Positions 3,000-52,353 of a stretch of 64,000 bases of DNA are shown one piece after another (the stretch's first letter is position 1; each line of letters begins with the position of its first letter). Origin of the DNA: a virus; the IMG/VR virus record IMGVR_UViG_3300022821_000013, positions 1 to 64,000 of that record. One strand, 5' to 3'. A program made the position numbers and the translations under genes. The notes beneath the pieces are model-generated. The model saw only the letters and a list, made by a program, of their open reading frames with translations. It was not told where the DNA came from and made no database searches.

Positions 3000-3031
3000 A
3001 TTTTATTTTAATGATATGTTAAATTTAAAAG

Positions 3032-3053
3032 TCGAAGTATAGATGTACTTCGA
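3032..3053 (-). terminator. hairpin ending tRNA cluster 1
   Basis: TCGAAGTA-N6-TACTTCGA inverted repeat followed on the minus strand by CTTTT, right after the last tRNA. Confidence 0.55.
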
Positions 3054-3058
3054 AAATG

Positions 3059-3143
3059 CGGAAATAAAAGGAATCGAACCTTCATCTCGTTTTCACGATT
3101 GACTCTTTAGCAAAGAGTTTGCTACACCAATTGCCGTATTTCC
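3059..3143 (-). tRNA. tRNA-Ser(GCT)
   Basis: Acceptor GGAAATA/TATTTCC, anticodon arm ACTCT-TTGCTAA-AGAGT, long variable arm, TTCGATT T-loop, G73; atypical D-arm. Confidence 0.85.
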
Positions 3144-3155
3144 ATTTTTTTAGTG

Positions 3156-3242
3156 TACCGGTAGGAAGATTTGAACTTCCAAGTGTATCTTCGTTTACCC
3201 ACGAGTCTAAATCGCGTGACTTTACCATTTGTCTATACCGGT
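3156..3242 (-). tRNA. tRNA-Leu(TAG)
   Basis: Acceptor ACCGGTA/TACCGGT, loop TTTAGAC, long variable arm, GGAAG-TTCAAAT-CTTCC. Confidence 0.88.
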
Positions 3243-3249
3243 AGATTTG

Positions 3250-3323
3250 TGGACACATATCGGATTTGAACCGATAACCCCCATATTGCAAGTATGGTGC
3301 TTTCCCAATTAAGCTAATGGCCC
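3250..3323 (-). tRNA. tRNA-Ala(TGC)
   Basis: CCATA-CTTGCAA-TATGG anticodon arm, canonical D and T arms; acceptor stem has a bulge. Confidence 0.8.
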
Positions 3324-3329
3324 ATTATT

Positions 3330-3386
3330 GTATGATATATCATTCATATTATATGGATTATATGTTATATGAATGACATATCATAC
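3330..3386. repeat. 20-bp inverted repeat (long hairpin) between tRNA-Gln and tRNA-Ala
   Basis: GTATGATATATCATTCATAT ... ATATGAATGACATATCATAC, one G-U pair on the minus strand. Confidence 0.8.
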
Positions 3387-3391
3387 TAATG

Positions 3392-3463
3392 TTGAGTGGG
3401 GTGGGGTCGAACCACCGAATGTCGGCTTCAAAAACCGATGCCTTACCACTTGGCTACCACCCA
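3392..3463 (-). tRNA. tRNA-Gln(TTG)
   Basis: TAGCCAAGTGGTAAGGC D-arm, TCGGT-TTTTGAA-GCCGA, GGTGG-TTCGACC-CCACC. Confidence 0.88.
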
Positions 3464-3471
3464 ATATATTG

Positions 3472-3544
3472 TACGAATGAATGGATTCGAACCATCACTG
3501 AACGAGGTTTAAACTCGATCCCTCTTCCGTTGGGGTACATTCGC
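3472..3544 (-). tRNA. tRNA-Leu(TAA), short variable loop
   Basis: Acceptor GCGAATG/CATTCGT, loop TTTAAAC, 5-nt variable region, TTCGAAT T-loop. Confidence 0.78.
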
Positions 3545-3553
3545 ATTTTTGTT

Positions 3554-3638
3554 GTAGGTGGTGAGAGATTCGAACTTAGCTATAGTATGAACTAACCAGA
3601 TTTACAGTCTGGCTGGGATCTCCAACTCCCGTACGACG
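3554..3638 (-). pseudogene. degenerate tRNA-Tyr(GTA)
   Basis: Perfect anticodon arm CCAGA-CTGTAAA-TCTGG and TTCGAAT loop, but T-stem and acceptor stem do not pair; boundaries approximate. Confidence 0.65.
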
Positions 3639-3646
3639 CATTAAAG

Positions 3647-3733
3647 AGGAAGTTGGGGCAGTCGAAACCCCATTGCCTTATTAGGGGCTTAGCTGTTTTC
3701 AAAACAGTTTGCTACACCAATTGCTGAACTTCC
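3647..3733 (-). tRNA. tRNA-Ser(TGA)
   Basis: Acceptor GGAAGTT/AACTTCC, loop TTTGAAA, long variable arm; shares the atypical D region GCAATTGGTGTAGCAAACT with Ser(GCT). Confidence 0.82.
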
Positions 3734-3735
3734 AT

Positions 3736-3775
3736 AAAAAGAAAAAATCTCGTCTATTTTATTAGAGGAGATTTT
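3736..3775 (-). terminator. intrinsic terminator of attenuator 1, upstream of tRNA cluster 1
   Basis: AAAATCTC-C-TCTA-ATAAAA-TAGA-C-GAGATTTT followed by TTCTTTTT, immediately 5' of the first tRNA. Confidence 0.8.
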
Positions 3776-3806
3776 ATTTCATATTCATTATATAATTTTA
3801 TTTTAT

Positions 3807-3920
3807 CTAATTAATAACATAAATATCCCCTACCATCGAATCCAGAGCAGTCGCTAACGACCACAATGTGATTGGTTGTAATATACTCGGTTGTTGATAT
3901 GTTATTATTGTATTTTTCAT
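3807..3920 (-). CDS. putative attenuator leader peptide 1 (37 aa, MKNTIITYQQPSILQPITLWSLATALDSMVGDIYVIN)
   Basis: ATG 3920 to TAG 3807 read by hand; contains G-ending codons TCG, GCG, CTG, CCG, GGG; ends ~30 nt before a terminator. Confidence 0.7.
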   Translation of the reverse strand: MKNTIITYQQPSILQPITLWSLATALDSMVGDIYVIN

Positions 3921-3959
3921 CTTATATATAAATAGAGATAAGTTTCTCGTAAATTAATT

Positions 3960-4097
3960 ATATCGATATGTTGGACTCGATACCAACAAAAACGATTCTC
4001 CCACGCACGTCAACCCACATAAAACTTAATCTAATAAGAAGCACTGACTCCTACTTTACTTATGTTAGGCGTGTCTATCTTTCACCAATATCAATAT
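3960..4097 (-). ncRNA. unidentified tRNA-like RNA with D-like and T-like arms and a large central insert
   Basis: Closing stem ATATTGATAT/ATATCGATAT, 5' TGGTGAAAGATAGACACG, 3' GTTGG-TATCGAGT-CCAAC; no ORF; flanked by a 20-bp perfect inverted repeat. Confidence 0.5.
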
Positions 4098-4100
4098 AAA

Positions 4101-4406
4101 TTAATTTACGAGAAACTTTTCTTTATCTAAAGTTGCTAATACCCTATAAAATAAAATCCCATTTTCAGTTTTGAATTGAACCTTAATCGGTCTAATACTT
4201 CTTGTTCCTGTTCTGATGGATTTTGTTACTTGTTCTGTACCATCATTATCTATAAAAGTAAGTTCATATCCCAATTGTTCACCATAGACCATAGAATCTA
4301 AATTAAACTTAGTATCTGTTTCTTCCCAATTACCATATGAAGATATTTCATCTTCCACTGTAGATTCTGTTATGAACCTTTTAAATTTATCGAATTCATT
4401 TGTCAT
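4101..4406 (-). CDS. hypothetical protein
   Basis: 101 aa ORF, ATGA overlap with upstream gene. Confidence 0.75.
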   Translation of the reverse strand: MTNEFDKFKRFITESTVEDEISSYGNWEETDTKFNLDSMVYGEQLGYELTFIDNDGTEQVTKSIRTGTRSIRPIKVQFKTENGILFYRVLATLDKEKFLVN

Positions 4407-5332
4407 TGTACATTCCCTATATATTTAGTGTCTATATGACATCCATCTTGTTCTATATTATCTATGCTTATTATCAATATACTACCGATAACATTAAAAT
4501 AAAACGTAGTATTTTTATTCGTACCTTGTATTTCATATCTAATATTCATATTCTCACTGGTCAACGCTATAGTAGTAGTTGAACCATGAGATTCACAATT
4601 ATAGTCATCATGATCATCTTGTATTTCTATAGTTTCAAATCCTACTAAATGAGATTGCAAGAATTGAATTACTTGTTGAAAATTGATTCTTATATTATCA
4701 ATTAATAAACATGTAGTGTCAGCATCTGGTTTTATATAATCGCTTACTTGTAATTGTTTCGTTTTACCATTATACGACATAAACTTTATATATTCATCGT
4801 TATAATCATCTTTTATTTTTATAGTTCTTATTTGTTTATGCTCATTATACAATTTAGTATTTATATGTGTTTTTATCTTAGTTAATCTATCATTTAAAAC
4901 TTCATATTTAGACACTAAATCATTTAATACAGATAACCATTCTTCAAATTGACTTATGAATTTATCTATATCTTCTATCGTAGAAATGGAAAATGTAATT
5001 GATTGTAATTTGTCAAGTTGTTTCCACTTTGGGAATTTGTAAGAATGATACTCATCATAACAACACCCATAACCGTATCTATTGTGTAGACTTCTAAGTG
5101 GTTTAACTTCGATTGTAATTCGTTCGTCATTATTATTATATGTTACATCTATATCACCAAAATCTTGATAATTACCAATTATACTAAAACCGTCTGTGTT
5201 ATAGCTATTACGTTCCATAGATTCTGTAATTGCATTCCAAAATAGTTTATTATGTGTTTTATTTCTACATAAATCATATAATATAGTTGTTAAACTTATA
5301 GTTTTACTTTCATTCTTCTTCTTCCAGAACAT
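4403..5332 (-). CDS. hypothetical protein
   Basis: 309 aa ORF, no recognised motif. Confidence 0.8.
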   Translation of the reverse strand: MFWKKKNESKTISLTTILYDLCRNKTHNKLFWNAITESMERNSYNTDGFSIIGNYQDFGDIDVTYNNNDERITIEVKPLRSLHNRYGYGCCYDEYHSYKFPKWKQLDKLQSITFSISTIEDIDKFISQFEEWLSVLNDLVSKYEVLNDRLTKIKTHINTKLYNEHKQIRTIKIKDDYNDEYIKFMSYNGKTKQLQVSDYIKPDADTTCLLIDNIRINFQQVIQFLQSHLVGFETIEIQDDHDDYNCESHGSTTTIALTSENMNIRYEIQGTNKNTTFYFNVIGSILIISIDNIEQDGCHIDTKYIGNVQ

Positions 5333-5368
5333 TTTTACTCTCTTTTTTTTAATGTATTCTTAATATGT

Positions 5369-5839
5369 CTATTTAACTAAGTCATCTCTTAATTTAGTTA
5401 AGACCTTTCCTAACAAATTTAAACCTAACCACTGTTCAGGGTCTTGTGCTCTTGGATCATCTTCAAGTAAACCAATACCCCAAATCTTATCACATGGAGA
5501 AGCATCAACTAAAGTTTTATCTTTAGTATCAAGTAATTTATTTAATAATTTTTCGTTTTGTGTGAACTTTGCATGGTTTCCTTTATATACAATTTCTTCA
5601 CATACAACTGACCATTTTTCAGCAATGAAATTTGAAACTTCTCTACCTAGTTTCTTCTGTTGTTTTGGATGTAAAGTATTCATAATCTTTGAAGCAGTTA
5701 ATTCATCACCAAAGAATAAAGCCTTTTGTTGCATCATATACTGTTCTGTACAATTATACATATCACCATCTATTTCAAATTTACAAGGATGCCATTGACT
5801 AAATGGCCCTGACCAGAAAAATTCATAATTCTCATTCAT
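5369..5839 (-). CDS. NADAR family hydrolase (YbiA-like)
   Basis: PFSQWHP, TEQYMMQQKALFFGD, KKLGREV, AKFTQN, ASPCDKIWGIG, GLNLLGKVL motifs. Confidence 0.92.
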   Translation of the reverse strand: MNENYEFFWSGPFSQWHPCKFEIDGDMYNCTEQYMMQQKALFFGDELTASKIMNTLHPKQQKKLGREVSNFIAEKWSVVCEEIVYKGNHAKFTQNEKLLNKLLDTKDKTLVDASPCDKIWGIGLLEDDPRAQDPEQWLGLNLLGKVLTKLRDDLVK

Positions 5840-5875
5840 AATGTTATTTTTTTAATATCGTTTAAAATAATAATA

Positions 5876-5906
5876 CAAACTTACGAAAAAATAATGATAT
5901 AAACAA
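5876..5906 (-). promoter_or_regulatory. Bacteroidota-type promoter
   Basis: TTG-N20-TAAGTTTG. Confidence 0.8.
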
Positions 5907-5909
5907 ATT

Positions 5910-6389
5910 TTATTTTCTATTAGCTATTAAATCAGCTGCACACGTTGCAGCAGGTGCATTTGGTTTTGCAAATACATCAAACCCTAAACTTTTAAGCCAA
6001 CCTACAGCCGCAGGATATGCTATATTAGATTTATATTTAGCTTCTGAATTTAAATCGATATGGATTTCTACAGGTTCTTGTAAAATATCTTGTATTTCTT
6101 CGGCTATACATTTAGATTTCTCTACTTCAGTCCAAAGCATTTCAAATATAGATAATTCTTTTTTATGTTTATCCATAGAATATATTAAATGAGCACCTTT
6201 ATTGTATCCATCAGTTCCATAATAAAACATAGCTATCACGGTAACATAAATAACTTTTTTAGATGCCTTCTTATATTTTGAATCCGATCCAACTGCTATT
6301 TTAGCATCAGGATTCATTTCAATGAATTTCTGAACATGTAAAATCCAATCATCAATTATTTCGTTTGTTTGGAATGTCTTGAAATACAT
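5910..6389 (-). CDS. RNase H-like YkuK (DUF458) family protein
   Basis: IAVGSDS, LWTEVEKS, VEIHIDLN, KPNAPAATCAAD motifs. Confidence 0.85.
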   Translation of the reverse strand: MYFKTFQTNEIIDDWILHVQKFIEMNPDAKIAVGSDSKYKKASKKVIYVTVIAMFYYGTDGYNKGAHLIYSMDKHKKELSIFEMLWTEVEKSKCIAEEIQDILQEPVEIHIDLNSEAKYKSNIAYPAAVGWLKSLGFDVFAKPNAPAATCAADLIANRK

Positions 6390-6407
6390 ATATACCTTAG
6401 TTTAAAG

Positions 6408-6480
6408 AGGTGAATCCCAGATTCGAACTGGGGTAAACGAGTTTGCAATCCGTTGTCTGAAACCACTCGACTAATTCACC
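6408..6480 (-). tRNA. tRNA-Cys(GCA)
   Basis: Acceptor GGTGAAT/ATTCACC, U73, loop TTGCAAA, CCCAG-TTCGAAT-CTGGG. Confidence 0.85.
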
Positions 6481-6493
6481 ATTATTATATTTT

Positions 6494-6566
6494 GTACCCA
6501 AGGTAGGATTCGAACCTTTATCTCCAATTGGAGGTAGGATAATGTTGCCAATTACACCAAATGTAC
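6494..6566 (-). pseudogene. degenerate tRNA-Gly(TCC)-like
   Basis: TGGTGTAATTGGCAACA D-arm, loop CCTCCAA, TTCGAAT; acceptor and T stems only partly paired. Confidence 0.55.
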
Positions 6567-6578
6567 ATTTCTAACGAG

Positions 6579-6652
6579 TTGACCTGGACGGACTTGAACC
6601 GTCGATCTTCGAATTATGAGTTCGCTGCTTTGACCAACTAAGCTACAGATCA
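6579..6652 (-). tRNA. tRNA(CAT), probably Ile2 (lysidine type)
   Basis: Acceptor TGATCTG/CAGGTCA, GCGAA-CTCATAA-TTCGA arm without the initiator GGG/CCC; Ile2 versus elongator Met is an inference. Confidence 0.8.
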
Positions 6653-6659
6653 ATATTTG

Positions 6660-6734
6660 GGTGAATGATGGGCTACGATCCCACGACCTTCGGTTTCACA
6701 GACCGACGCTCTAACCAACTGAGCTACAAACACC
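6660..6734 (-). tRNA. tRNA-His(GTG)
   Basis: G-1:C73, TCGGT-CTGTGAA-ACCGA; non-canonical T-loop ATCGTAG and two acceptor mismatches. Confidence 0.8.
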
Positions 6735-6745
6735 ATAATAAAAAG

Positions 6746-6829
6746 TTGCGGAAGACAGATTCGAACTGTCATTATACTTCTCGTCTCTGGGTTATGAGCC
6801 CAGGATGTTAACCATTACACCATTCCGCA
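6746..6829 (-). tRNA. tRNA-Met(CAT), initiator-like, with expanded variable region
   Basis: CTGGG-CTCATAA-CCCAG (three G-C pairs), acceptor TGCGGAA/TTCCGCA, 16-nt variable region AGACGAGAAGTATAAT. Confidence 0.8.
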
Positions 6830-6837
6830 ATAACTTG

Positions 6838-6910
6838 TGATCTTACAGGAACTCGAATCCTGATTGCAACTTCGAATGAGTTGTGTCCTAACCATTTAGA
6901 CGATAAGACC
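6838..6910 (-). tRNA. tRNA-Glu(TTC), non-canonical anticodon loop
   Basis: Glu-like body (TCGTCTAAATGGTTAGGAC), CAACT-CATTCGA-AGTTG with A33 and G37. Confidence 0.78.
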
Positions 6911-6920
6911 GAATTATAAA

Positions 6921-6958
6921 TAAAAAATCCTTCAGTGTTTTAAGTTGAAGGATTTTTA
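6921..6958 (-). terminator. intrinsic terminator of attenuator 2, upstream of tRNA cluster 2
   Basis: AAAAATCCTTCA-N11-TGAAGGATTTTTT, ~10 nt before tRNA-Glu. Confidence 0.85.
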
Positions 6959-6983
6959 TAAATTTTTAGAAATGAATTTATTA

Positions 6984-7070
6984 TTATGCCCTTCGTACAT
7001 ACACCCCAAACCCACACTCAACGTGTATATTAGGTCTAAAGCTATTCATATGTTTATTATTACGAGTCAT
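6984..7070 (-). CDS. putative attenuator leader peptide 2 (28 aa, MTRNNKHMNSFRPNIHVECGFGVYVRRA)
   Basis: ATG 7070 to TAA 6984 read by hand; codons CAC GAG TGT GGG GGG clustered; ends ~25 nt before the terminator. Confidence 0.7.
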   Translation of the reverse strand: MTRNNKHMNSFRPNIHVECGFGVYVRRA

Positions 7071-7131
7071 TATTATCTTTTTAATTTTACTTCTATTAAT
7101 AAATAGAGATACGTTTTTTGTAAATTAATTA

Positions 7132-9237
7132 TTATTTTATATATTTTGAATTTATAGTTAGAACATCACTTGCTCTAACAACATTTTTATTATCTAACGT
7201 ATCATCCTCATACTCATCCGTAACATATAGCATATCAGCGTTATCAATGTCAAATGTTAATTGTGATGGTGCATAGTACATACTAAATAAGTCTTTTAAT
7301 GTAGTTTTATCAGTTAGATTAACTATAGACCTTAACACATCAGATACATTCACATCATTATTGATAACTGTGTTATGATGCATACCACCATTTCTAAAAT
7401 ATAAATCAGTCCAGATTATCTGTTTAGTTTCAATATCAAAGATAAATGGAACTGCTACCTTAGAATTTCCATCTAATTTCATAGAATACTTAACTGTTTT
7501 AGGATCATAAATCTCATTTGAATTAGGACGTTCTCTTAGCATAAAACCTGCGAAACATTCTTTATGTTCTTTAAATGTTGGGCCACTATAAACATTTATA
7601 TTTAATGTTATATATCTAACTTCTGATTTTACTACTTTATTCATAGTTATATCAATAAATTCAGATGCTCCATTTGGTGCTCGTGTAATATCACCAGAAT
7701 GTACTATTTCTAATTCTTTAATTTTTAATTGTTGAAATGAACAATGAGTTACCATTTCAAATTTATCATTATATAATGTAGCTGACAAATCAATATCTTG
7801 TCCTATCCAATGACAAAACATTCGTAAAGTTATATTTTTATTTTTATCTTCTAAATCAATCTTAGATCCTCTACCATAAGAGAATTGACCTTCCGATACA
7901 CTTCTTTGTTGTGTAGGTAATGTATATTGACTTAATCTTTCATCTATATATACTTTCTTACCTTCTGACGTTCCTTGTAATCTCAATCTTAAATGTGAGT
8001 TTATACAATTTAGATAGTCTTGTACTAATTGCAATTGCCAATCTGTAAATTTCTTAAATTGCACTCTTCTAACTTTAGATGTAGAACCTTTAGGAAATAC
8101 TAATCTACTATCATAACCTTTTAATATAACTTGTAAGTGTCCTTTAGCTTGTAATAATACTCGTGTTGATACTTCTGATATACATTCTTCTAAATTATCA
8201 ATACCTAATTTACCAGAGTTATATCCATCAGAGATATTAATTAAAGTTACTATGTTTCTTACGTATTCACCTGGTTTCTTCATTAGAGAATTAATAGCTG
8301 AATGATAGTCTTTATTTTTTAAAGATTCATTTATAATAGTGCTTAAACTCTCTACATTTTTATTATTTCTAAATGATCTCAATACATCTGAAAATTTGGA
8401 TTGTTTTAGAAATTCACCACAATGTAATGAATGTGTTAATTTAATCCATTTATTTTTATGTCTCTTGAAGTCATCTACGTTAAACACTTTATCAAGTCTA
8501 TTAGTTATTCTACGTCTAAGACTTTTAGATAATGATTTAAACTTGGTATTTTCAGTTAATGATACATCACCACCAGATAGATATGTACAGTAACGTAGTA
8601 TATCAGTTGGTGTTTTGAGTAATTCTAAATTATCAGTATATTCAACTACATAACATAAGTTTTCTTTATATGGAATATTTATAGTATTAATATCATATAT
8701 CTCTCCAAAGTGAGCTATTAATACCTTAACTGATTCCTTATCGAAATCAGATAGAGAATCATTAGTAGATAATAAATCACATAATATTTCTATCATACCA
8801 TTAATATCTATTATACCTATACGTTTGAAGTTTAATACGTCAATATCAGTTTGTCTTGGCTTTTTATCTATATCTGGATAGTATTCGCCTAATGACAAAT
8901 AATGTATTATAGCGTTAAAGTATAGCTCAAATTCAGACATATTATAAACTTCTTCTGGGAAGTTTGGATAAAATGTTTTATATGAACGTGCACCTTTAAA
9001 TTCTTCCAATATAAAAATTATATCAATTAAATTTAAGTTATATCGTAATACAAGTTTAAGTAAATGAGAATCTATCGTATAACCCAAATTATTCAATATT
9101 TGGTTATATGCTATAGTCTCTTTTATTGATTGTTTGTAATTATTAATATCAATATCTTCTAATACTGTAGAAGATGAGTCCATTATGAATATAGATGATC
9201 TATATTTTAATGCTATTTTTAATAGGTCTTTATTCAT
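7132..9237 (-). CDS. Ro/TROVE-like helical protein with C-terminal TerD domain
   Basis: N-terminal YKTFYPNFPEEVYNMSEFELYFNAIIHY, TPTDILRY, KPGEYVR motifs; C-terminal TerD signature DIDLSA...HSGDITRAPNGASEFIDI. TerD domain is well supported; Ro-like N-terminus is from family recall. Confidence 0.75.
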   Translation of the reverse strand: MNKDLLKIALKYRSSIFIMDSSSTVLEDIDINNYKQSIKETIAYNQILNNLGYTIDSHLLKLVLRYNLNLIDIIFILEEFKGARSYKTFYPNFPEEVYNMSEFELYFNAIIHYLSLGEYYPDIDKKPRQTDIDVLNFKRIGIIDINGMIEILCDLLSTNDSLSDFDKESVKVLIAHFGEIYDINTINIPYKENLCYVVEYTDNLELLKTPTDILRYCTYLSGGDVSLTENTKFKSLSKSLRRRITNRLDKVFNVDDFKRHKNKWIKLTHSLHCGEFLKQSKFSDVLRSFRNNKNVESLSTIINESLKNKDYHSAINSLMKKPGEYVRNIVTLINISDGYNSGKLGIDNLEECISEVSTRVLLQAKGHLQVILKGYDSRLVFPKGSTSKVRRVQFKKFTDWQLQLVQDYLNCINSHLRLRLQGTSEGKKVYIDERLSQYTLPTQQRSVSEGQFSYGRGSKIDLEDKNKNITLRMFCHWIGQDIDLSATLYNDKFEMVTHCSFQQLKIKELEIVHSGDITRAPNGASEFIDITMNKVVKSEVRYITLNINVYSGPTFKEHKECFAGFMLRERPNSNEIYDPKTVKYSMKLDGNSKVAVPFIFDIETKQIIWTDLYFRNGGMHHNTVINNDVNVSDVLRSIVNLTDKTTLKDLFSMYYAPSQLTFDIDNADMLYVTDEYEDDTLDNKNVVRASDVLTINSKYIK

Positions 9238-9262
9238 TTAAAGATTTCCTTATTATTAAATA

Positions 9263-9401
9263 TTAAATTGTGATTATGAAATCGTTTTATACTTCTGCTC
9301 TACCAACTGAGCTACTAACCGATTATTACGATTAGGTAGGACTCGAACCTACGACCTGAAGTTCCTTAATGTTAGAAGTATGATTTCATATAGCAATTTA
9401 A
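9263..9401 (-). ncRNA. Y-RNA-like (YrlA-type architecture) tRNA mimic, array unit 4
   Basis: Terminal stem with conserved array motifs encloses a T-arm (GTAGG-TTCGAGT-CCTAC) placed before a D-arm (TAGCTCAGTTGGTAGAGC), i.e. a circularly permuted tRNA with no anticodon loop. Confidence 0.8.
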
Positions 9402-9410
9402 GTAAAAAAT

Positions 9411-9472
9411 GTCTGTAATTGAAATTTCGATTAATATCCAAAATTATAGAAGTATGAAATTTCATAGCAGAC
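9411..9472 (-). ncRNA. short stem-loop ncRNA, array unit 3
   Basis: GTCTG-CTA-TGAAATTTC-ATACTTCTA-loop-CGAAATTTCA-ATTA-CAGAC. Confidence 0.75.
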
Positions 9473-9493
9473 TTAAATTAATTTTAAAAGAAA

Positions 9494-9561
9494 GGGTTGT
9501 AATTATAAAAACGTAGTTTGCGTTTTGTATATTTTAGAAGTATGTTTCTATATAGCAACCC
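9494..9561 (-). ncRNA. short stem-loop ncRNA, array unit 2
   Basis: GGGTTG-CTA-TATAGAAAC-ATACTTCTA-loop-CGTTTTTATA-ATTA-CAACCC. Confidence 0.75.
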
Positions 9562-9568
9562 ATAGTAT

Positions 9569-9644
9569 TATTTGTAATTGATATTTCGTTTCTTGTTATA
9601 TTCATGGTATAGTAGTTTAGAAGTATGAAATATCATAGCAAACA
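9569..9644 (-). ncRNA. short stem-loop ncRNA, array unit 1
   Basis: TGTTTG-CTA-TGATATTTC-ATACTTCTA-loop-CGAAATATCA-ATTA-CAAATA. Confidence 0.75.
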
Positions 9645-9676
9645 GTTTAATTTTTATTTTGTGTCAATTCTTAATA

Positions 9677-9707
9677 CAAACTTACGAAAAAGAAATGACA
9701 TATCCTA
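9677..9707 (-). promoter_or_regulatory. Bacteroidota-type promoter driving the ncRNA array and Ro-like gene
   Basis: TTTCTTTTTCG-TAAGTTTG -7 element; the -33 element is degenerate (TAGG). Confidence 0.75.
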
Positions 9708-9717
9708 ATTTTATTTT

Positions 9718-10614
9718 TTAGTCAAATAACTTATCTATAATTTTAGCTACATAAGTAGAATTAATATCTTCTTTCTTAGAATCTTGTAATATATCTACTA
9801 ACGCATACATATATGCTTGATCAACACCAGTTAATTGTTCAGTTAAGACATTAATATCAGACATATCTATTTCAGATATTTGCCACATTATTTTTAATTG
9901 TTCTCCAGCAGATATTCTCCAACCACGTTCTAAGAACTTCTTAGTTCTAAATATAGATGCTATTGGATATAAACTACCTTTATATACTAAAGTCCTCGAT
10001 AACAAGCATTCTAATGCTTCTGGGTGCAATACCAACGTATCATTATCATAATCATAATAATTCATAGCATGAACAAAATCATAATTACTATGGATAGTTT
10101 GTGGATCACCATAAAATCTAGTTACTAATTGAATCTTATCTGTTAATGTTATAGCATTACTTGATATGAACACAGGTGCATATTTACCATTTTCATCTGT
10201 AACAAAATCACCGAAATCATCAGAATCTGTTTCATTTGTTACGATACCCTTACCACCTCTTGCTTCAATATAAACTCTATCTTCATCTACACCTTTAATA
10301 TTACAAATAGACTTTTCAATTACATTCATAGGAACTTCATCTAATTTATTAGATACTCTAATACTATTTAATTTATTAATGTAATATTTAGCTACTTGTA
10401 TATTGCAATCTTTAGTTTTAAAATATATATCATAATCATTTACTGGATCACCTAATAACATAGATGCTATAGAGCCACCAGTTACGATTGTATTTTTTCT
10501 ACATAATTTTTGTATATTCTCATCATCTATACTATCTATCCAATTAGATACTTTTTTATTTAGTTCCTTTCTGATACCTGATTTCTTTCTACCATATTTA
10601 ATATCTACACTCAT
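9718..10614 (-). CDS. pol-beta superfamily nucleotidyltransferase-like protein
   Basis: TGGSIASMLLGDPVNDYDIYF (GG...DxD) and YDFVHA motifs, reminiscent of the CCA/poly(A) polymerase head. Confidence 0.7.
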   Translation of the reverse strand: MSVDIKYGRKKSGIRKELNKKVSNWIDSIDDENIQKLCRKNTIVTGGSIASMLLGDPVNDYDIYFKTKDCNIQVAKYYINKLNSIRVSNKLDEVPMNVIEKSICNIKGVDEDRVYIEARGGKGIVTNETDSDDFGDFVTDENGKYAPVFISSNAITLTDKIQLVTRFYGDPQTIHSNYDFVHAMNYYDYDNDTLVLHPEALECLLSRTLVYKGSLYPIASIFRTKKFLERGWRISAGEQLKIMWQISEIDMSDINVLTEQLTGVDQAYMYALVDILQDSKKEDINSTYVAKIIDKLFD

Positions 10615-10674
10615 TATATTTACTCTTTTTGTTAATGTTAAAACTTAATTACTTTCTTTCTGAAAGATAATTTA

Positions 10675-10705
10675 CAAACTTACGGAATTATTTATTAACT
10701 TCCAA
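10675..10705 (-). promoter_or_regulatory. Bacteroidota-type promoter
   Basis: TTG-N20-TAAGTTTG. Confidence 0.75.
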
Positions 10706-10708
10706 ATT

Positions 10709-10960
10709 TTATTTTTTGTTAGGTCGATTATCTATTATAGTACCATCATTACGTTCATAATAAATTTCATTACCATTAAAATCAAATTCTTTTTTTGCCC
10801 ATTCACCGTAACTATTTCAATATAAATACAGTCACCTTTAGAATCATATTTATACATTTGCCAATTTTCATTAATATCTTTATGATAAATTACACGATTG
10901 TTAAAATCTCGTACTCTTATAGTATAACCATCTGAATTATTTTAAGTTCTTTAGCTTCAT
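10709..10960 (-). pseudogene. frameshifted 23-aa-repeat family member
   Basis: MKLKNL... then RVIYHKDINENWQMYKYDSKGDCIYIE / GEWAKKEFDFNGNEIYYERNDGTIIDNRPNKK* in different frames; two frameshifts (could be assembly errors). Confidence 0.6.
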
Positions 10961-11480
10961 TTATAATATTATTAATTAACAAATGCATTTCAGTCTCACT
11001 AAACACACGATTGAGTTCAGCAGTAACCCTATCTATATCTTTTCTTTTATGTTCTACCCAGAATTCGTAGATGTCCTCTTTGAAGTTCTCATATTCACTT
11101 GATGATATAACATTATCTACCATCAGTTCCATATCAAGATAACTTAATATAGCACATAGACTGGAATCGTACTTATGTTTAATCTTATTTAATTCCTTTA
11201 GTGTATCATTCTCATCAAATACCAATTCTAACATATTAAATGATAATCTAGATTTATTAATAATATCTTCAAATATAGATTTAGATATTACTGGATCCAT
11301 ACTCGGATTTAACATTGTAATCGTACATTCAATTAATTTATTTAGTAATAACGAATTACATCTAACGTAATACAAAACATTAAGACGTTTGGATTCTTTT
11401 TTTTGTTTCTTAGTTGGTTCTGGTGTATTTCTACAACCACAATTATCATCCTTTTCACCATAATATGAATAGCATGGCAT
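10917..11480 (-). CDS. hypothetical protein
   Basis: 187 aa ORF starting MPC. Confidence 0.75.
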   Translation of the reverse strand: MPCYSYYGEKDDNCGCRNTPEPTKKQKKESKRLNVLYYVRCNSLLLNKLIECTITMLNPSMDPVISKSIFEDIINKSRLSFNMLELVFDENDTLKELNKIKHKYDSSLCAILSYLDMELMVDNVISSSEYENFKEDIYEFWVEHKRKDIDRVTAELNRVFSETEMHLLINNIINEAKELKIIQMVIL

Positions 11481-11483
11481 ATT

Positions 11484-11690
11484 TCACTCCTTAATTAATT
11501 TCCATTTTACATAATTATAAAAAATACGTATATAACTAAATTCATTCCCATAACGCCTATAATAATCTTCGTTTATAGGTTGGAAACTATTATAAAAATT
11601 ATAAGCAAATTTCATATTCACTGTTTGTGGTGGATATAAATCTACCTCTATATGATCATCTCTGAAGTATATAAAGTCATGCTCATCCAT
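11484..11690 (-). CDS. small hypothetical protein, paralogue of the next ORF
   Basis: Shares MDE...FYN.F...YG...Y.RI...YVKWKLI with 11683..11898. Confidence 0.7.
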   Translation of the reverse strand: MDEHDFIYFRDDHIEVDLYPPQTVNMKFAYNFYNSFQPINEDYYRRYGNEFSYIRIFYNYVKWKLIKE

Positions 11691-11898
11691 TAATTAATTT
11701 CCATTTTACGTATGATTCGTATATTCTATTATATTCAATCTGATAGCCATAGATGGAATATGGAACTCTATGATCACCAGTCACCAAAAAATTATAAAAC
11801 ATTATAACTATAGTTCTGTTTGATCTCGGTTCTTGTATTGAATGTATATAAATATAATCCACAACAAAAGCGATGTGTGTGACTACTGGTTCATCCAT
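11683..11898 (-). CDS. small hypothetical protein
   Basis: Tandem paralogue of 11484..11690. Confidence 0.7.
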   Translation of the reverse strand: MDEPVVTHIAFVVDYIYIHSIQEPRSNRTIVIMFYNFLVTGDHRVPYSIYGYQIEYNRIYESYVKWKLING

Positions 11899-48303: not shown

Positions 48304-51300
48304 TCACCCACATTTACTAGAGCCACAATCTAAACAAGTAAGACACCCATCCTGATATGCTAAATTTGTGGATTTGCATTCGGAACATTCATGCCCAGTT
48401 ACAACTTCCAAATCATTTATATATCGTTTAAGTATACGTTTAACACCTGATTTCCATGATGTTATAATATCACCATCTAAATTAAGACCATCTAATAAAT
48501 CAACCACATATTTGATTGGCATACCATGCCTTAAAATAGCACTTACAATTCTACTAACATCATCGAATTCCTTAATCCCATACATTTTCAAATCAATAGT
48601 TGTAATTCTATCATCACCCTTCATATATATAAATATATATTCTGATTTACCGTTTATTTTGGTTCGTTCAATCCAACCATTAGTAACATTATTAAGATTA
48701 AAATCTATATTATCAACTGGAATGGTAAATAGTTCGTATGGCTTATCATTATATAATCCAACAAAACCAAACCATTTAGTACCATTAGATGTAAAATGAA
48801 TAACATCACAATTTATTGTTTTGGGTCGTTTTGGTGCTTTAGTATCTTCAAATAAATCAATTTTAGTATCATTATTTGAAATTAAAACTCCACTACGAGA
48901 TCCATCTCTATATATAGTACACCCCTTACATCCACTTTCCCAAGCAGTCAAATATATTTTATCAACTGTATCCTCATCAATATCATTTGGTAAATTAACC
49001 GTTACTGATATTGAGTGATCTACCCATTTCTGTATTTCACCTTGCATCTTAACTTTCTCCACCCAATTAACATCATTTGATGTTGCTTTATAATATGGAG
49101 ACATAGATATTATAATATTAATCGTATTTTCATCTAAACCTACAAGATATTCTTTACATTGATTATAATCCCATGATTCACTTATAACATCATTAGTTAT
49201 ATTAGAACGTATGTCATTCTGATTGTAAAAGAACCAATCTATGAATTTATGGTGAAATACATTAAATTCCATCCATTTATCACCTAATTCATCTACAAAA
49301 TCAACACGTGTATTTCTATCAGTTGGATTTATTTTTCTTCGTCTTCTATATGAAACTAAAAACACAGGTTCAACCCCAGATGAAGTCTGTGTCATCATTG
49401 ATACAGTTCCAGTTGGAGCAATAGTTAGTAACCCAATATTACGTCTTCCATATTTCAATAAGTCATCTTTTATAGATGGGTCAGATTCTAATATCCTATT
49501 TATAAATGGATTGTCTTTCTCTATATCCCAATCCCATATTGGAAAATTACCTCTATCTTTTGCTAATTGAACTGATTCCCTGAATACATTTATAGCATAA
49601 CGTTTATGAACTTCTACTGAAAATTCAGTAGCAGGTGGAGTTCCATATATTAATCCCATAGCAGCTAACATATCACCTTCACCAGTAACACCTATACCAG
49701 TTCGCCTACCCATCTCACATTTATATTTAATTTTAGTCCATAAATCAATTTCAGTTTGCTTGGTATTAATATCTTCAGGGTCTAAATTTATTTTTTCTAA
49801 TATAGAATCAATTTTTTCTAATTCCAAATCAACTATATTATCCATTATTCTCATAATATATTTAGAATGTTCATCGAATAATTCCCAATCAAATTCAGCG
49901 TGTTTTGTAAATGGATTTTTAACGTAACTATATAAATTTAAAGCAGTTAATCTACAACTATCATATGGAGGTAAAACAATTTCACCACATTGGGCAGTGA
50001 ATACACCTATCATATTATTATGTCCAATTGAATTTTCTTTTATATCAGTTATAAATGCCAATGTATGATTATCATCAACAGTTATATTATATACATCTTC
50101 ATAACCATATATCTCTACAGATTTTACTTTGTGGTTATAATCAATGGATTTATATTTTAATTCTTTATATGTTTTAAATGGTGAATTAGGTCCAAATCTA
50201 AATGGAATATTATTTGTTTTACATCGTTCCTCCCACTCTACTTTGAGTGGGGTTCTATCCAATTCAAATTTCAAATCAGAATATATCTTAATTTGTAAGT
50301 CTTTATGTTTAATTTTAGTATCACTTGCTTGTCTACGAAGACCATTTAAATTAGAGTTATCTGGTTTAGACCATGAATTCAAAGTAGAACATTTACGTGA
50401 ACAAAATGTAGACTCTTTTGCATCATACGTAGTGTGGAATTCAGAGTTGCAATTTTCACATTTTTTATTAATGTAAACCTTACCTGTATCTATAAATACA
50501 TCCAAATTCAAATCCATACCTTTATGTAATGTTTTAACTACTCTAGGATCAACATCATTATATTCACCAAATCCAAGTTTATTTGCTGCCCACACTGATA
50601 AATCGTTTAAATCATACCCTAAAGTATCAACTCTCCATTTTGATAATGACTGTGGTATACCTTTCGATTTAGCAAATGTTGACCATTCCTTATAAGAAAA
50701 TCTTCTTCTGAGTGTACTCGTTAAATCCAACGCATATTCTTTAATGTCTTCATTTGTAAATCCAGAGTATTTTCCATTCTTTTCTCCTTGTGTATCATTA
50801 TCAGCATGATACTTGGCATGTTCTCTGAATGTCATAATCTCTAGATTATCAGGTGAATTATTTAATCCATTATAATCTTTATGATGTACAACCAAGCCAC
50901 CATTAACCCAACCATTAACCTTATTTGCATTGTATTTTTCAGACCATAATTCTGGATTGTTATATTTAGCAATTAACTTATGCTCAAATAATTTATCAAT
51001 CGTAGAATCTTTGGTATTAGTATTAATTCTATAATATGGATTAGTATTATTCTTTGATATGCGTTCTGAACGTTTAGTAAACCTCATTAAACTATCACCA
51101 CATTTCAAATCCTTAGCCTCTATTTTAGTACCATCATATAATAAAAATTTATGATTTGTAGTTGTCTTAATAGATGAGCCATCATCAAGTGTTATTTTTA
51201 GAATTTGTCTATCATTAACAGTTAGTCTTGGATTCCTACCCATTTTAATATCTACTTTCCCAGTGATTGGATCTACACTATAAACAGGAACATCTTCTCC

Positions 51301-52353
51301 AATCTCAGCTAATTCTCGTATAGGAACACTATTTCTACCATCTGCAACCGCAACTAATGTATCCCCAGTCACACATGGATTTGTACTTACATCTCCAAAA
51401 CCATATTCTTTATAACAATTACCAATTGATTCAGATAACATTTTATCCCAAAACATTACTCCTGGTTCTGCACTATTCCAAGCATTATGAATTATTTTAG
51501 ACCATATATCCCTTGCTATTATTTTATTTCTTAATTCAGTCCCATCATTATATTTAAAAACTAAATCATAACATATTTTATTCTCTAATTCATCAAGTTT
51601 AGTCTGTTCTGAATCAGTTATATCTAATTTATCACGTAACGTTTTATATAAATCTACATCTTCTTGGTTTGTTCGTTTGACAATAAACATAAATTCATCT
51701 AACATTTTAACTGATACATTAGCACCAGTTACCTTACCACTTTCCATTTTAGCATCTATAAAATCACCTACATCTGGATGCGAAACCAAAATAGATAGCA
51801 TAAGTGCACCTCTCCTACCATCTTGACCAACTTCCCTTGTAGAATTTGAATATCGTTCCATAAATGGAACTACACCTGTGGATGTTTTAGCTGAATTGTT
51901 CACAGGGCTATGTTTGGGTCTTATATGAGATAAATCATGACCAACCCCAGCTCTCCTCTTCATTAGATGTACTTGTTCTTCATCTATTTTAAGTATAGAT
52001 CCATATGAATCTTCATCATTACCAATAACAAAGCAATTACTTATACTTATAGTTTGTAAATCATTTCCTATGCCAAACATAGGACTTCCTTGTGGGATTA
52101 TATATTTAAATCTATCAAATAAATTGAAATAAAAAGCTGAATCCTTCGCATTTGGATATTTATTATCGATTCTAGAAATTTCATCCGATAACCTCCAATG
52201 CATATTTTCTGGATTTAACTCATAATAAATATTATCTTTATTCAATGAATATTTCGAAATCCAAGTTGTGGCTGAAATATCTTCATTGTTAAAATAGTTT
52301 TTTGTACTTTCTAATAAATCATCGTATGAATATGTATTCTGACTTATATCCAT
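48304..52353 (-). CDS. nrdJ: class II (B12-dependent) ribonucleotide reductase with intein
   Basis: SNCFV, QDGRRGALM, AEPG, TNP[intein]CGE, TIAPTGT, KGCTIYRDGSR, C-terminal TSCPD-like domain and Zn ribbon; no small subunit adjacent. Confidence 0.93.
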   Translation of the reverse strand: MDISQNTYSYDDLLESTKNYFNNEDISATTWISKYSLNKDNIYYELNPENMHWRLSDEISRIDNKYPNAKDSAFYFNLFDRFKYIIPQGSPMFGIGNDLQTISISNCFVIGNDEDSYGSILKIDEEQVHLMKRRAGVGHDLSHIRPKHSPVNNSAKTSTGVVPFMERYSNSTREVGQDGRRGALMLSILVSHPDVGDFIDAKMESGKVTGANVSVKMLDEFMFIVKRTNQEDVDLYKTLRDKLDITDSEQTKLDELENKICYDLVFKYNDGTELRNKIIARDIWSKIIHNAWNSAEPGVMFWDKMLSESIGNCYKEYGFGDVSTNPCVTGDTLVAVADGRNSVPIRELAEIGEDVPVYSVDPITGKVDIKMGRNPRLTVNDRQILKITLDDGSSIKTTTNHKFLLYDGTKIEAKDLKCGDSLMRFTKRSERISKNNTNPYYRINTNTKDSTIDKLFEHKLIAKYNNPELWSEKYNANKVNGWVNGGLVVHHKDYNGLNNSPDNLEIMTFREHAKYHADNDTQGEKNGKYSGFTNEDIKEYALDLTSTLRRRFSYKEWSTFAKSKGIPQSLSKWRVDTLGYDLNDLSVWAANKLGFGEYNDVDPRVVKTLHKGMDLNLDVFIDTGKVYINKKCENCNSEFHTTYDAKESTFCSRKCSTLNSWSKPDNSNLNGLRRQASDTKIKHKDLQIKIYSDLKFELDRTPLKVEWEERCKTNNIPFRFGPNSPFKTYKELKYKSIDYNHKVKSVEIYGYEDVYNITVDDNHTLAFITDIKENSIGHNNMIGVFTAQCGEIVLPPYDSCRLTALNLYSYVKNPFTKHAEFDWELFDEHSKYIMRIMDNIVDLELEKIDSILEKINLDPEDINTKQTEIDLWTKIKYKCEMGRRTGIGVTGEGDMLAAMGLIYGTPPATEFSVEVHKRYAINVFRESVQLAKDRGNFPIWDWDIEKDNPFINRILESDPSIKDDLLKYGRRNIGLLTIAPTGTVSMMTQTSSGVEPVFLVSYRRRRKINPTDRNTRVDFVDELGDKWMEFNVFHHKFIDWFFYNQNDIRSNITNDVISESWDYNQCKEYLVGLDENTINIIISMSPYYKATSNDVNWVEKVKMQGEIQKWVDHSISVTVNLPNDIDEDTVDKIYLTAWESGCKGCTIYRDGSRSGVLISNNDTKIDLFEDTKAPKRPKTINCDVIHFTSNGTKWFGFVGLYNDKPYELFTIPVDNIDFNLNNVTNGWIERTKINGKSEYIFIYMKGDDRITTIDLKMYGIKEFDDVSRIVSAILRHGMPIKYVVDLLDGLNLDGDIITSWKSGVKRILKRYINDLEVVTGHECSECKSTNLAYQDGCLTCLDCGSSKCG
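49990..51375 (-). mobile_element. 462-aa intein with HNH endonuclease, Gln-terminated
   Basis: Begins CVTGDTLVAV, block B TTNHKF, HNH VHHKDYNGLNNSPDNLEIM, block F VYNITVDDNH, ends FTAQ/CGE. Confidence 0.92.

Follow-up and report, generated by a model that had tools for sequence, protein, structure and literature searches.

Two tRNA arrays of an AT-rich phage lie behind late-type promoters, mini-ORFs and terminator hairpins: a candidate translation-coupled attenuator

The phage genome possesses two tRNA arrays, and each of them is preceded by the same succession of promoter, mini-ORF and terminator. This architecture is real and not a product of chance at both arrays. The unit of promoter, mini-ORF and terminator was found at two of two tRNA arrays, and the 93-kb record contains no other instance of it. 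The most secure inference from the sequence is that the hairpins gate both arrays behind late-type promoters. For array 2 and the RNaseH-like gene which follows it, gating by a translation-coupled transcription attenuator is our tentative reading, and it could well be right. Codon-specific sensing, in which each array would be switched on by the shortage of exactly its own encoded tRNAs, is a more doubtful proposal. The analysed stretch, called the window here, comprises the initial 64,000 nucleotides of an IMG/VR virus record of 93 kb. Its G+C content is 28%, and the minus strand holds nearly all genes. The features of both arrays are listed in Table 1, where all coordinates of array-2 elements refer to the minus strand.

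Table 1. Positions of the elements of both tRNA units in the window.
Feature	Position	Strand	Remarks
Shared 33-nt motif, copy before leader 2	7131-7099	-	The 701-aa Ro/TerD-like gene has its stop codon just upstream; motif begins 1 base past it
Leader-2 ORF	7070-6984	-	28 codons (MTRNNKHMNSFRPNIHVECGFGVYVRRA) + TAA; ATG 23 nt past promoter box
Internal leader-2 hairpin (predicted)	7042-7003	-	Over codons 10-22, including ATA CAC GTT GAG TGT GGG; in MFE and centroid folds
GAAGGG, 5' strand of candidate antiterminator	6994-6989	-	Ends 2 nt before leader-2 stop codon
Terminator 2	6957-6917	-	A/U-rich hairpin with UCCUUC/GAAGGA core, then U-run; ends ~7 nt before tRNA-Glu (6916-6911 between)
tRNA array 2, whole	6910-6407	-	Glu, CAT 85-nt, His, CAT 75-nt, decayed spacer, Cys
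tRNA-Glu(TTC)	6910-6837	-	
85-nt CAT tRNA	6829-6745	-	
tRNA-His(GTG)	6733-6659	-	
75-nt CAT tRNA	6652-6578	-	
Decayed tRNA-like spacer (probable)	6577-6481	-	Former 'Gly(TCC)'
tRNA-Cys(GCA)	6480-6407	-	
RNaseH_like (PF04308) gene	6389-5910	-	159 aa; starts 18 nt past tRNA-Cys
Shared 33-nt motif and late-type promoter, copy before leader 1	3960-3928	-	
Leader-1 ORF	3920-3807	-	37 codons; ATG directly abuts promoter box
Leader-1 terminator hairpin, then U-run	3775-3744	-	-9.7 kcal/mol
tRNA array 1	3733-3058	-	Ser(TGA), Tyr(GTA), Leu(TAA), Gln, Ala, Leu(TAG), Ser(GCT); Ser(TGA) and Tyr(GTA) at relaxed threshold only

In a self-search, the region 7131-7066 was found to be similar to 3961-3901. The 33-nt motif shared by the two regions occurs, in degenerate form, exactly twice in the 93-kb record, one copy per leader, with a chance expectation of 0; the exact motif was absent from the viral and metagenome contigs searched. 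Reading of all intergenic regions distinguished a second promoter-like class before structural genes, which has the core TATTTAT followed a few bases on by ATAAG or ATAG. The 3' half of the 33-nt motif corresponds to this late-type box, with the core CTATTTAT..ATAG and the top-scoring window from 7113. A weight matrix for the late box was trained on nine boxes upstream of structural genes, with the tRNA leaders left out. It gave 13.1 bits at 7113 and 17.8 bits at 3942, and only 16 sites in 186 kb (both strands) scored above 12 bits, both leader motifs among them. In a near relative (PolB 64% identical), a very similar late-type box precedes a long gene, at 22 nt from its ATG, and the Shine-Dalgarno site of this gene is poor. 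Since the structural-gene matrix picks both leader motifs and a similar box precedes the long gene of the relative, the motif is read as a putative late-type phage promoter, and this assignment does not depend on the leaders. Before the box, a further 20 conserved nt (7131-7112 and 3960-3941) are common only to the promoters of the two tRNA arrays, and a third copy, in inverted orientation, is situated at 4098-4130. A reading of the motif as a sigma-70 promoter of TTTACA-N17-TATTAA type was dropped once the two promoter classes of the phage itself emerged.

A promoter between terminator and tRNAs had been named in the initial annotation of this DNA as a finding that would speak against attenuation of array 2. 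It was looked for at both arrays in the interval from the hairpin to the first tRNA, and none of late, early Bacteroidota-type or sigma-70-type class was found there, the best late-box scores being -3.4 and -5.2. Because no recognisable promoter lies between the hairpin and the tRNAs, all recognisable transcription into the arrays crosses the hairpin. The putative late-type promoter before both leaders and the lack of a recognisable promoter past the hairpin are new in the present analysis. Transcripts crossing the hairpin may come from the late promoter or from genes further upstream. A possible second late promoter at tRNA-Glu, made up of the terminator U-run and TATTTATAAT, was rejected, as its matrix score was -3.4 and about 2,500 sites score equally.

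Six tRNAs had been claimed for array 2. Those for Glu, His and Cys and the two with CAT anticodon were retained, the name 'Ile2' for one of the CAT tRNAs being an assumption, while the claimed Gly(TCC) was lost. At its position ARAGORN made no call even under relaxed settings, Rfam detected no tRNA at E<=1, and the fold was not distinguished from shuffles (z -0.5). This stretch is probably a decayed tRNA in which the GGTTCGAATCC T-loop is kept. Neither promoter nor terminator was found between tRNA-Cys and the RNaseH_like gene, and the next early promoter is situated at 5907. As the 18-nt gap after tRNA-Cys contains neither element, the RNaseH_like gene is probably part of the gated unit. Megablast and blastn searches against the phage collection gave matches of generic tRNA similarity only, and single-protein locus searches with the RNaseH-like and Ro/TerD-like proteins returned nothing close.

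The terminator hairpin before array 2 was confirmed at 6957-6923. It is composed of 12 bp, of which 3 are G-C pairs, around an 11-nt loop, folds at -11.3 kcal/mol and is followed by UUUUUUAUUUAU. The other terminators of the phage fold at -10.7 to -18.2 kcal/mol, placing this one among the weakest. The GAAGGG element near the end of the leader-2 ORF had been proposed to pair with UCCUUC (6952-6947) of the 5' arm. Such a pairing is predicted in the nascent-RNA fold with a probability of about 0.98, but the antiterminator is weak and within chance: its 6 bp stabilise the nascent RNA by -4.2 kcal/mol against -11.3 kcal/mol for the terminator, and 19% of shuffles reach as much. Regarding its placement, GAAGGG would be hidden under a ribosome that has reached the stop codon, and a ribosome stalled at codons 15-19 would leave it free. 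For the region 6911-7131, a 19.6-bit chance match on the opposite strand was the only Rfam match at E<=1, and a T-box riboswitch or other known RNA family was rejected on this basis.

As described in the initial annotation, an ORF of 28 codons precedes terminator 2. This ATG-initiated frame lies between the late-type box and the terminator, and its TAA is followed by two further in-frame TAA codons. In shuffles of the AT-rich leader, an ORF of such length arose with P of about 0.05 for leader 2 and about 0.015-0.02 for leader 1, and both values hold with local composition preserved. The joint chance of two ORFs filling the promoter-to-terminator interval is ~1e-3. No Shine-Dalgarno site was found at the leader-1 or leader-2 ORF, although most phage genes, late ones included, have stronger, GAGG-like ones. 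Upstream of the leader-2 ATG only an A-rich region is present, and the anti-Shine-Dalgarno duplex of this ORF is -0.9 kcal/mol compared to a gene median of -4.0. As the ATG of leader 1 adjoins the promoter box, this ORF, if translated, would be read as a leaderless message. The two peptides are mutually unrelated and gave no tblastn match in the phage collection. Leader 2 as a whole folds at z = -2.2 versus shuffles, and the value for both leaders is about -2.2.

The codon list given earlier for leader 2 is correct: two ATG and one CAT, then ATA CAC GTT GAG TGT GGG TTT GGG, with no Leu or Gln codon. The claim that these codons mirror array 2 is statistically weak, and not significant, for leader 2 by itself. 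With one of the six claimed tRNAs undetectable, 6 of 27 codons match the array where 4.6 are expected (P=0.31), and counting the unsupported Gly raises this to 8 of 27 (P=0.12). The best-window scan gave P 0.06-0.07 with the strict set and 0.015-0.023 with Gly. The matched codons of the strict set are located at codons 15-19 (ATA CAC GTT GAG TGT), and 19-21 of the 27 codons have no tRNA in array 2. Coverage of all tRNA classes by the codons is reached in 8-18% of open frames with the base composition of leader 2 and in 2% when compared against genome codon usage or other small ORFs. In the +1 frame of leader 2, codons for each of the six classes in the array-2 set are likewise present. The codon, ORF-length and pairing statistics were all computed on the data that prompted the idea.

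The two leaders were then compared with each other. The best-window codon match of leader 1 to its own array had P 0.01-0.02. In a partition test, the leader codons were fixed and all possible allocations of the 11-13 tRNA classes to the two arrays were compared. The real allocation ranked in the top 1-4% by matched codons (P 0.01-0.04) and in the top 1.2% by classes covered, and P was ~0.9 for both leaders when the codon sets were swapped. The initial annotation had described the leaders as unrelated in sequence with a shared logic. That view is borne out for the architecture and for the better fit of each leader to its own array, but not for the pairing, in which the two leaders have no common geometry. 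The pairing strand ends 2 nt before the stop codon in leader 2 and lies 18-23 nt before it in leader 1, where the alternative pairing amounts to -2.2 kcal/mol and is equalled by 39% of shuffles.

On the attenuation reading, RNA would start at the late-type promoter, and its first ~170 nt would contain the 28-codon ORF and then the terminator, with ~7 nt left to the first tRNA. When ribosomes read the ORF fast to its stop, the ribosome would lie over GAAGGG, UCCUUC would be free, the hairpin would form and transcription would end. If the ribosome lags or stalls, or translation fails in general, GAAGGG would pair with UCCUUC during synthesis of the 3' arm, and more polymerases would continue into the tRNA genes. 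Here we infer that the leader-2 ORF is translated, that the hairpin terminates transcription, that the GAAGGG pairing competes in time with the terminator and that the codons for Ile(ATA), His, Glu and Cys are the sensing sites. That the two unrelated peptides serve as separate gauges of two codon sets belongs to the tRNA-shortage part of this reading, and like that part it appears rather unlikely.

The near relative is syntenic with the window from 11.9 to 45.8 kb. Its 56-kb fragment contains no tRNA gene and none of the ORFs from 0-11.8 kb of the window, and for this reason the island of tRNA, Ro-like and NADAR genes looks like an accessory block. No relative of the Ro/TerD-like gene above 41% identity was found among 5.8 billion proteins or in IMG/VR. 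An identical Ro/TerD-like protein was observed on five contigs. In more distant phages, the Ro/TerD-like gene is often separated from a tRNA by a plain hairpin that leaves no space for an ORF. The upstream 200 nt of about 60 tRNA arrays of distant Ro/TerD-like relatives, inspected by eye, revealed no consistent mini-ORF with terminator, a result of little bearing on the present lineage. The DNA runs which contain the window are salt-lake metagenomes. At 6981-7150, four DNA runs gave only low-depth fragments, identical to the window, with no usable microdiversity.

The early promoter pattern TTTG-N20-TAAGTTTG, a Bacteroidota promoter pattern, precedes at least 11 phage genes in the intergenic reading, and this class is kept in the only near relative. 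One phage gene weakly matches a sorting domain of type IX secretion. Together, the sorting-domain match and the occurrence of TTTG-N20-TAAGTTTG before at least 11 genes make a Bacteroidota-type host likely.

The arrangement can also be explained by a constitutively leaky terminator, in which a fixed fraction of transcripts from the strong late promoter and upstream genes passes the hairpin and sets the tRNA dosage, the ORFs and codon matches being incidental. A hairpin among the weakest of the phage fits well with this, as do the codon and antiterminator statistics of leader 2, which are within chance, the lack of a Shine-Dalgarno site at the leader ORF and the plain hairpins without room for an ORF in distant relatives. 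However, it leaves the two interval-filling ORFs to a joint chance of ~1e-3 and does not account for the better own-array fit of each leader (P 0.01-0.04), and we regard it as somewhat improbable. The leaders may instead be separate small late genes or small RNAs of a moron-like unit, with the tRNAs transcribed by residual read-through or from an unrecognised promoter. Promoter, ORF of 28 aa or 37 aa and terminator indeed form a complete stand-alone transcription unit; the 23-nt spacing from box to ATG in leader 2 is that of real late genes and of the long gene in the relative, ORFs of these lengths would rarely arise by chance, and both leaders fold better than shuffles. Such units are found only before the two tRNA arrays, however, and encode unrelated peptides with no match in the phage collection. 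Both ORFs also lack the GAGG-like sites carried by most phage genes, and the tRNAs would then be left with no promoter. This explanation is unlikely.

In the late unit PR'-tR' of phage lambda, the antitermination protein Q is loaded at the promoter, and Q at PR'-tR' and TRAP/PyrR-type proteins are analogues for factor-dependent control. The present units resemble PR'-tR' in that, within ~200 nt of a late promoter, polymerases meet an intrinsic terminator which has to be overcome for downstream expression, but no Q-like factor or site was identified in the phage and the terminator is found only on the tRNA units. Passage of polymerases over the hairpin by a phage late protein or RNA-binding factor, with translation uninvolved, is very unlikely: a terminator close behind a late-class promoter and the extra 20 nt, which could be a protein site, are in its favour, but no candidate factor was identified, the other late promoters of the phage have no terminator behind them and the open frames are left unexplained.

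The attenuation reading of array 2 finds its models in the leader-peptide attenuators of amino-acid operons such as trpL, hisL and pheL and the multivalent thrL and ilvL. As in trpL-type attenuators, a promoter-proximal mini-ORF and an intrinsic terminator precede the regulated genes, and the 5' strand of the predicted alternative pairing is situated at the end of the ORF, where a terminating ribosome would have its footprint. Unlike them, the phage unit would regulate tRNAs and an RNaseH-like gene instead of biosynthetic enzymes, and leader 2 shows single codons for 4-5 tRNAs and no tandem runs of regulatory codons. Its antiterminator is also much weaker than the terminator, and the Shine-Dalgarno site is lacking.

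A comparable arrangement is present in Caulobacter phage phiCbK. In its GenBank record, gp083, a 45-aa CDS, and a predicted terminator are annotated immediately ahead of a Pro-Pro-Lys-Lys-Leu-Leu-Leu-Ser-Ser block. A 32-codon ORF that lacks annotation precedes another annotated terminator and a Phe-Val-Ile-Ile-Val-Gln-Gln block. Both phages share the order of promoter, mini-ORF, terminator and tRNA block, with more than one unit per genome and different codons in each. The phiCbK leaders are far richer in the amino acids of their own block. With the same scan statistic, the two of them give a corrected P of ~2e-4 per leader compared to 0.01-0.07 for the present leaders, which are thus about 100 times weaker examples. 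The phages also differ in host phylum, G+C content and promoter type and have no sequence similarity. The scores of the phiCbK leaders make the attenuator class credible.

No published account of attenuation of tRNA genes, leader-peptide type included, was found in the literature search. The closest published case is the trn tRNA operon of Anabaena PCC 7120, an accessory tRNA array which likewise answers to translational stress and is silent until translation is impaired (PMC8421152, PMC10272220). It differs in being controlled at the promoter by the repressor TrcR, which acts on direct repeats over the -10 box, and no leader ORF or terminator is reported for it (PMC8421152, PMC10272220). Phage tRNAs are known to help in escape from tRNA-cleaving host defences (PMC10264068, PMC11555353, PMC11464382).

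At ~230 bp, and with two unrelated, swappable leaders, the locus is compact enough to serve as a test object. To our knowledge, the control of phage tRNA genes is almost unstudied. Even if the codon match is due to chance, both tRNA arrays would still be wired behind a late promoter and a terminator. If attenuation is true, decoding speed would feed back directly on tRNA supply, and a mechanism known from textbooks would gain a new class of target genes. The occurrence in an AT-rich phage of Bacteroidota type beside a Caulobacter phage would point to independent use by convergence. On the more doubtful reading of codon-specific sensing, the leaders would form a tRNA-pool sensor out of the classic attenuation mechanism, which is not described in print for tRNA genes, and the phage would replace tRNAs only upon failure of the host pool, for example after cleavage by a host anticodon nuclease.

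Two sharply different promoter classes, early and late, were found across the whole record. The early box is a nearly invariant element of about 50 nt with the pattern TTTG-N20-TAAGTTTG, and this class is also kept in the only near relative, the 64%-PolB relative. The late box, TATTTAT..ATAAG, is situated ahead of the structural genes (69-93 kb) and of a T9SS-tailed gene at 45.8 kb.

A third copy of the leader motif, the 33-nt late-type promoter motif found ahead of both leader ORFs, is found in inverted orientation at 4098-4130 (plus strand); it carries four mismatches and overlaps the stop codon of a 101-aa ORF. This copy and 3960-3940 make up an inverted repeat, perfect over about 20 nt, whose arms enclose 137 nt. 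The enclosed segment contains a 28-codon GTG ORF (4044-3958) which is preceded by AGGAG.

Between the stop codon of leader 1, the ORF before tRNA array 1, and its terminator, an indel pair at 3789-3800 was observed in one contig in each of three salt-lake runs, with depths up to 31. The presence of these contigs in three runs suggests that a related variant of leader 1 is present in the lake. Leader 2, the ORF before tRNA array 2, closes with three in-frame TAA codons in a row (6978-6986, minus strand), which may be due to chance in an AT-rich genome.

Both tRNA arrays contain a spacer. As the array 1 spacer is near-palindromic, AT-rich and includes a sigma-70-like ATGATA-N16-TATAAT match on the minus strand, it may represent a hairpin or a promoter inside the array. 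The array 2 spacer probably represents a decayed tRNA gene, because no tRNA is detectable in it despite the T-loop. It also holds the single TAnnTTTG match of array 2, at 6565, and the upstream TTTG is absent there. In initiator tRNAs the foot of the anticodon stem typically carries three G-C pairs in a row. The association of such an initiator-type stem with a long variable arm in one CAT tRNA of array 2 is an unusual combination.

Features of the tRNA arrays, promoter examples and the intein-bearing gene
Feature	Position	Strand	Remark
Promoter-class examples	58800, 53845, 46426, 40648, 28953, 13040, 12617, 10706, 5907, 3000	-	
AT-rich near-palindromic spacer, 67 nt	3324-3390	-	interrupts tRNA array 1 at the Gln/Ala boundary
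Ribonucleotide reductase large subunit	48304-52353	-	split by intein with HNH endonuclease domain
85-nt tRNA, CAT anticodon	6745-6829	-	long variable arm; three consecutive G-C pairs at foot of anticodon stem
97-nt spacer within tRNA array 2	6481-6577	-	GGTTCGAATCC T-loop retained

Just upstream of the 701-aa Ro/TerD-like gene, Rfam gave a match below threshold to YrlA, a Y RNA-like family, at 9293-9360 on the minus strand (37.9 bits, E 2e-5). The position of this candidate beside the gene is compatible with a phage Ro/Y-RNA module. None of the ORFs at 0-11.8 kb of the window, including the NADAR, RNaseH-like and Ro/TerD-like genes neighbouring the tRNA arrays, was matched in the 56-kb fragment of the 64%-PolB relative, and no tRNA gene was found in that fragment, which is otherwise collinear with the window from 11.9 to 45.8 kb. 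The block at about 3000-11800 of the window looks like an accessory island.
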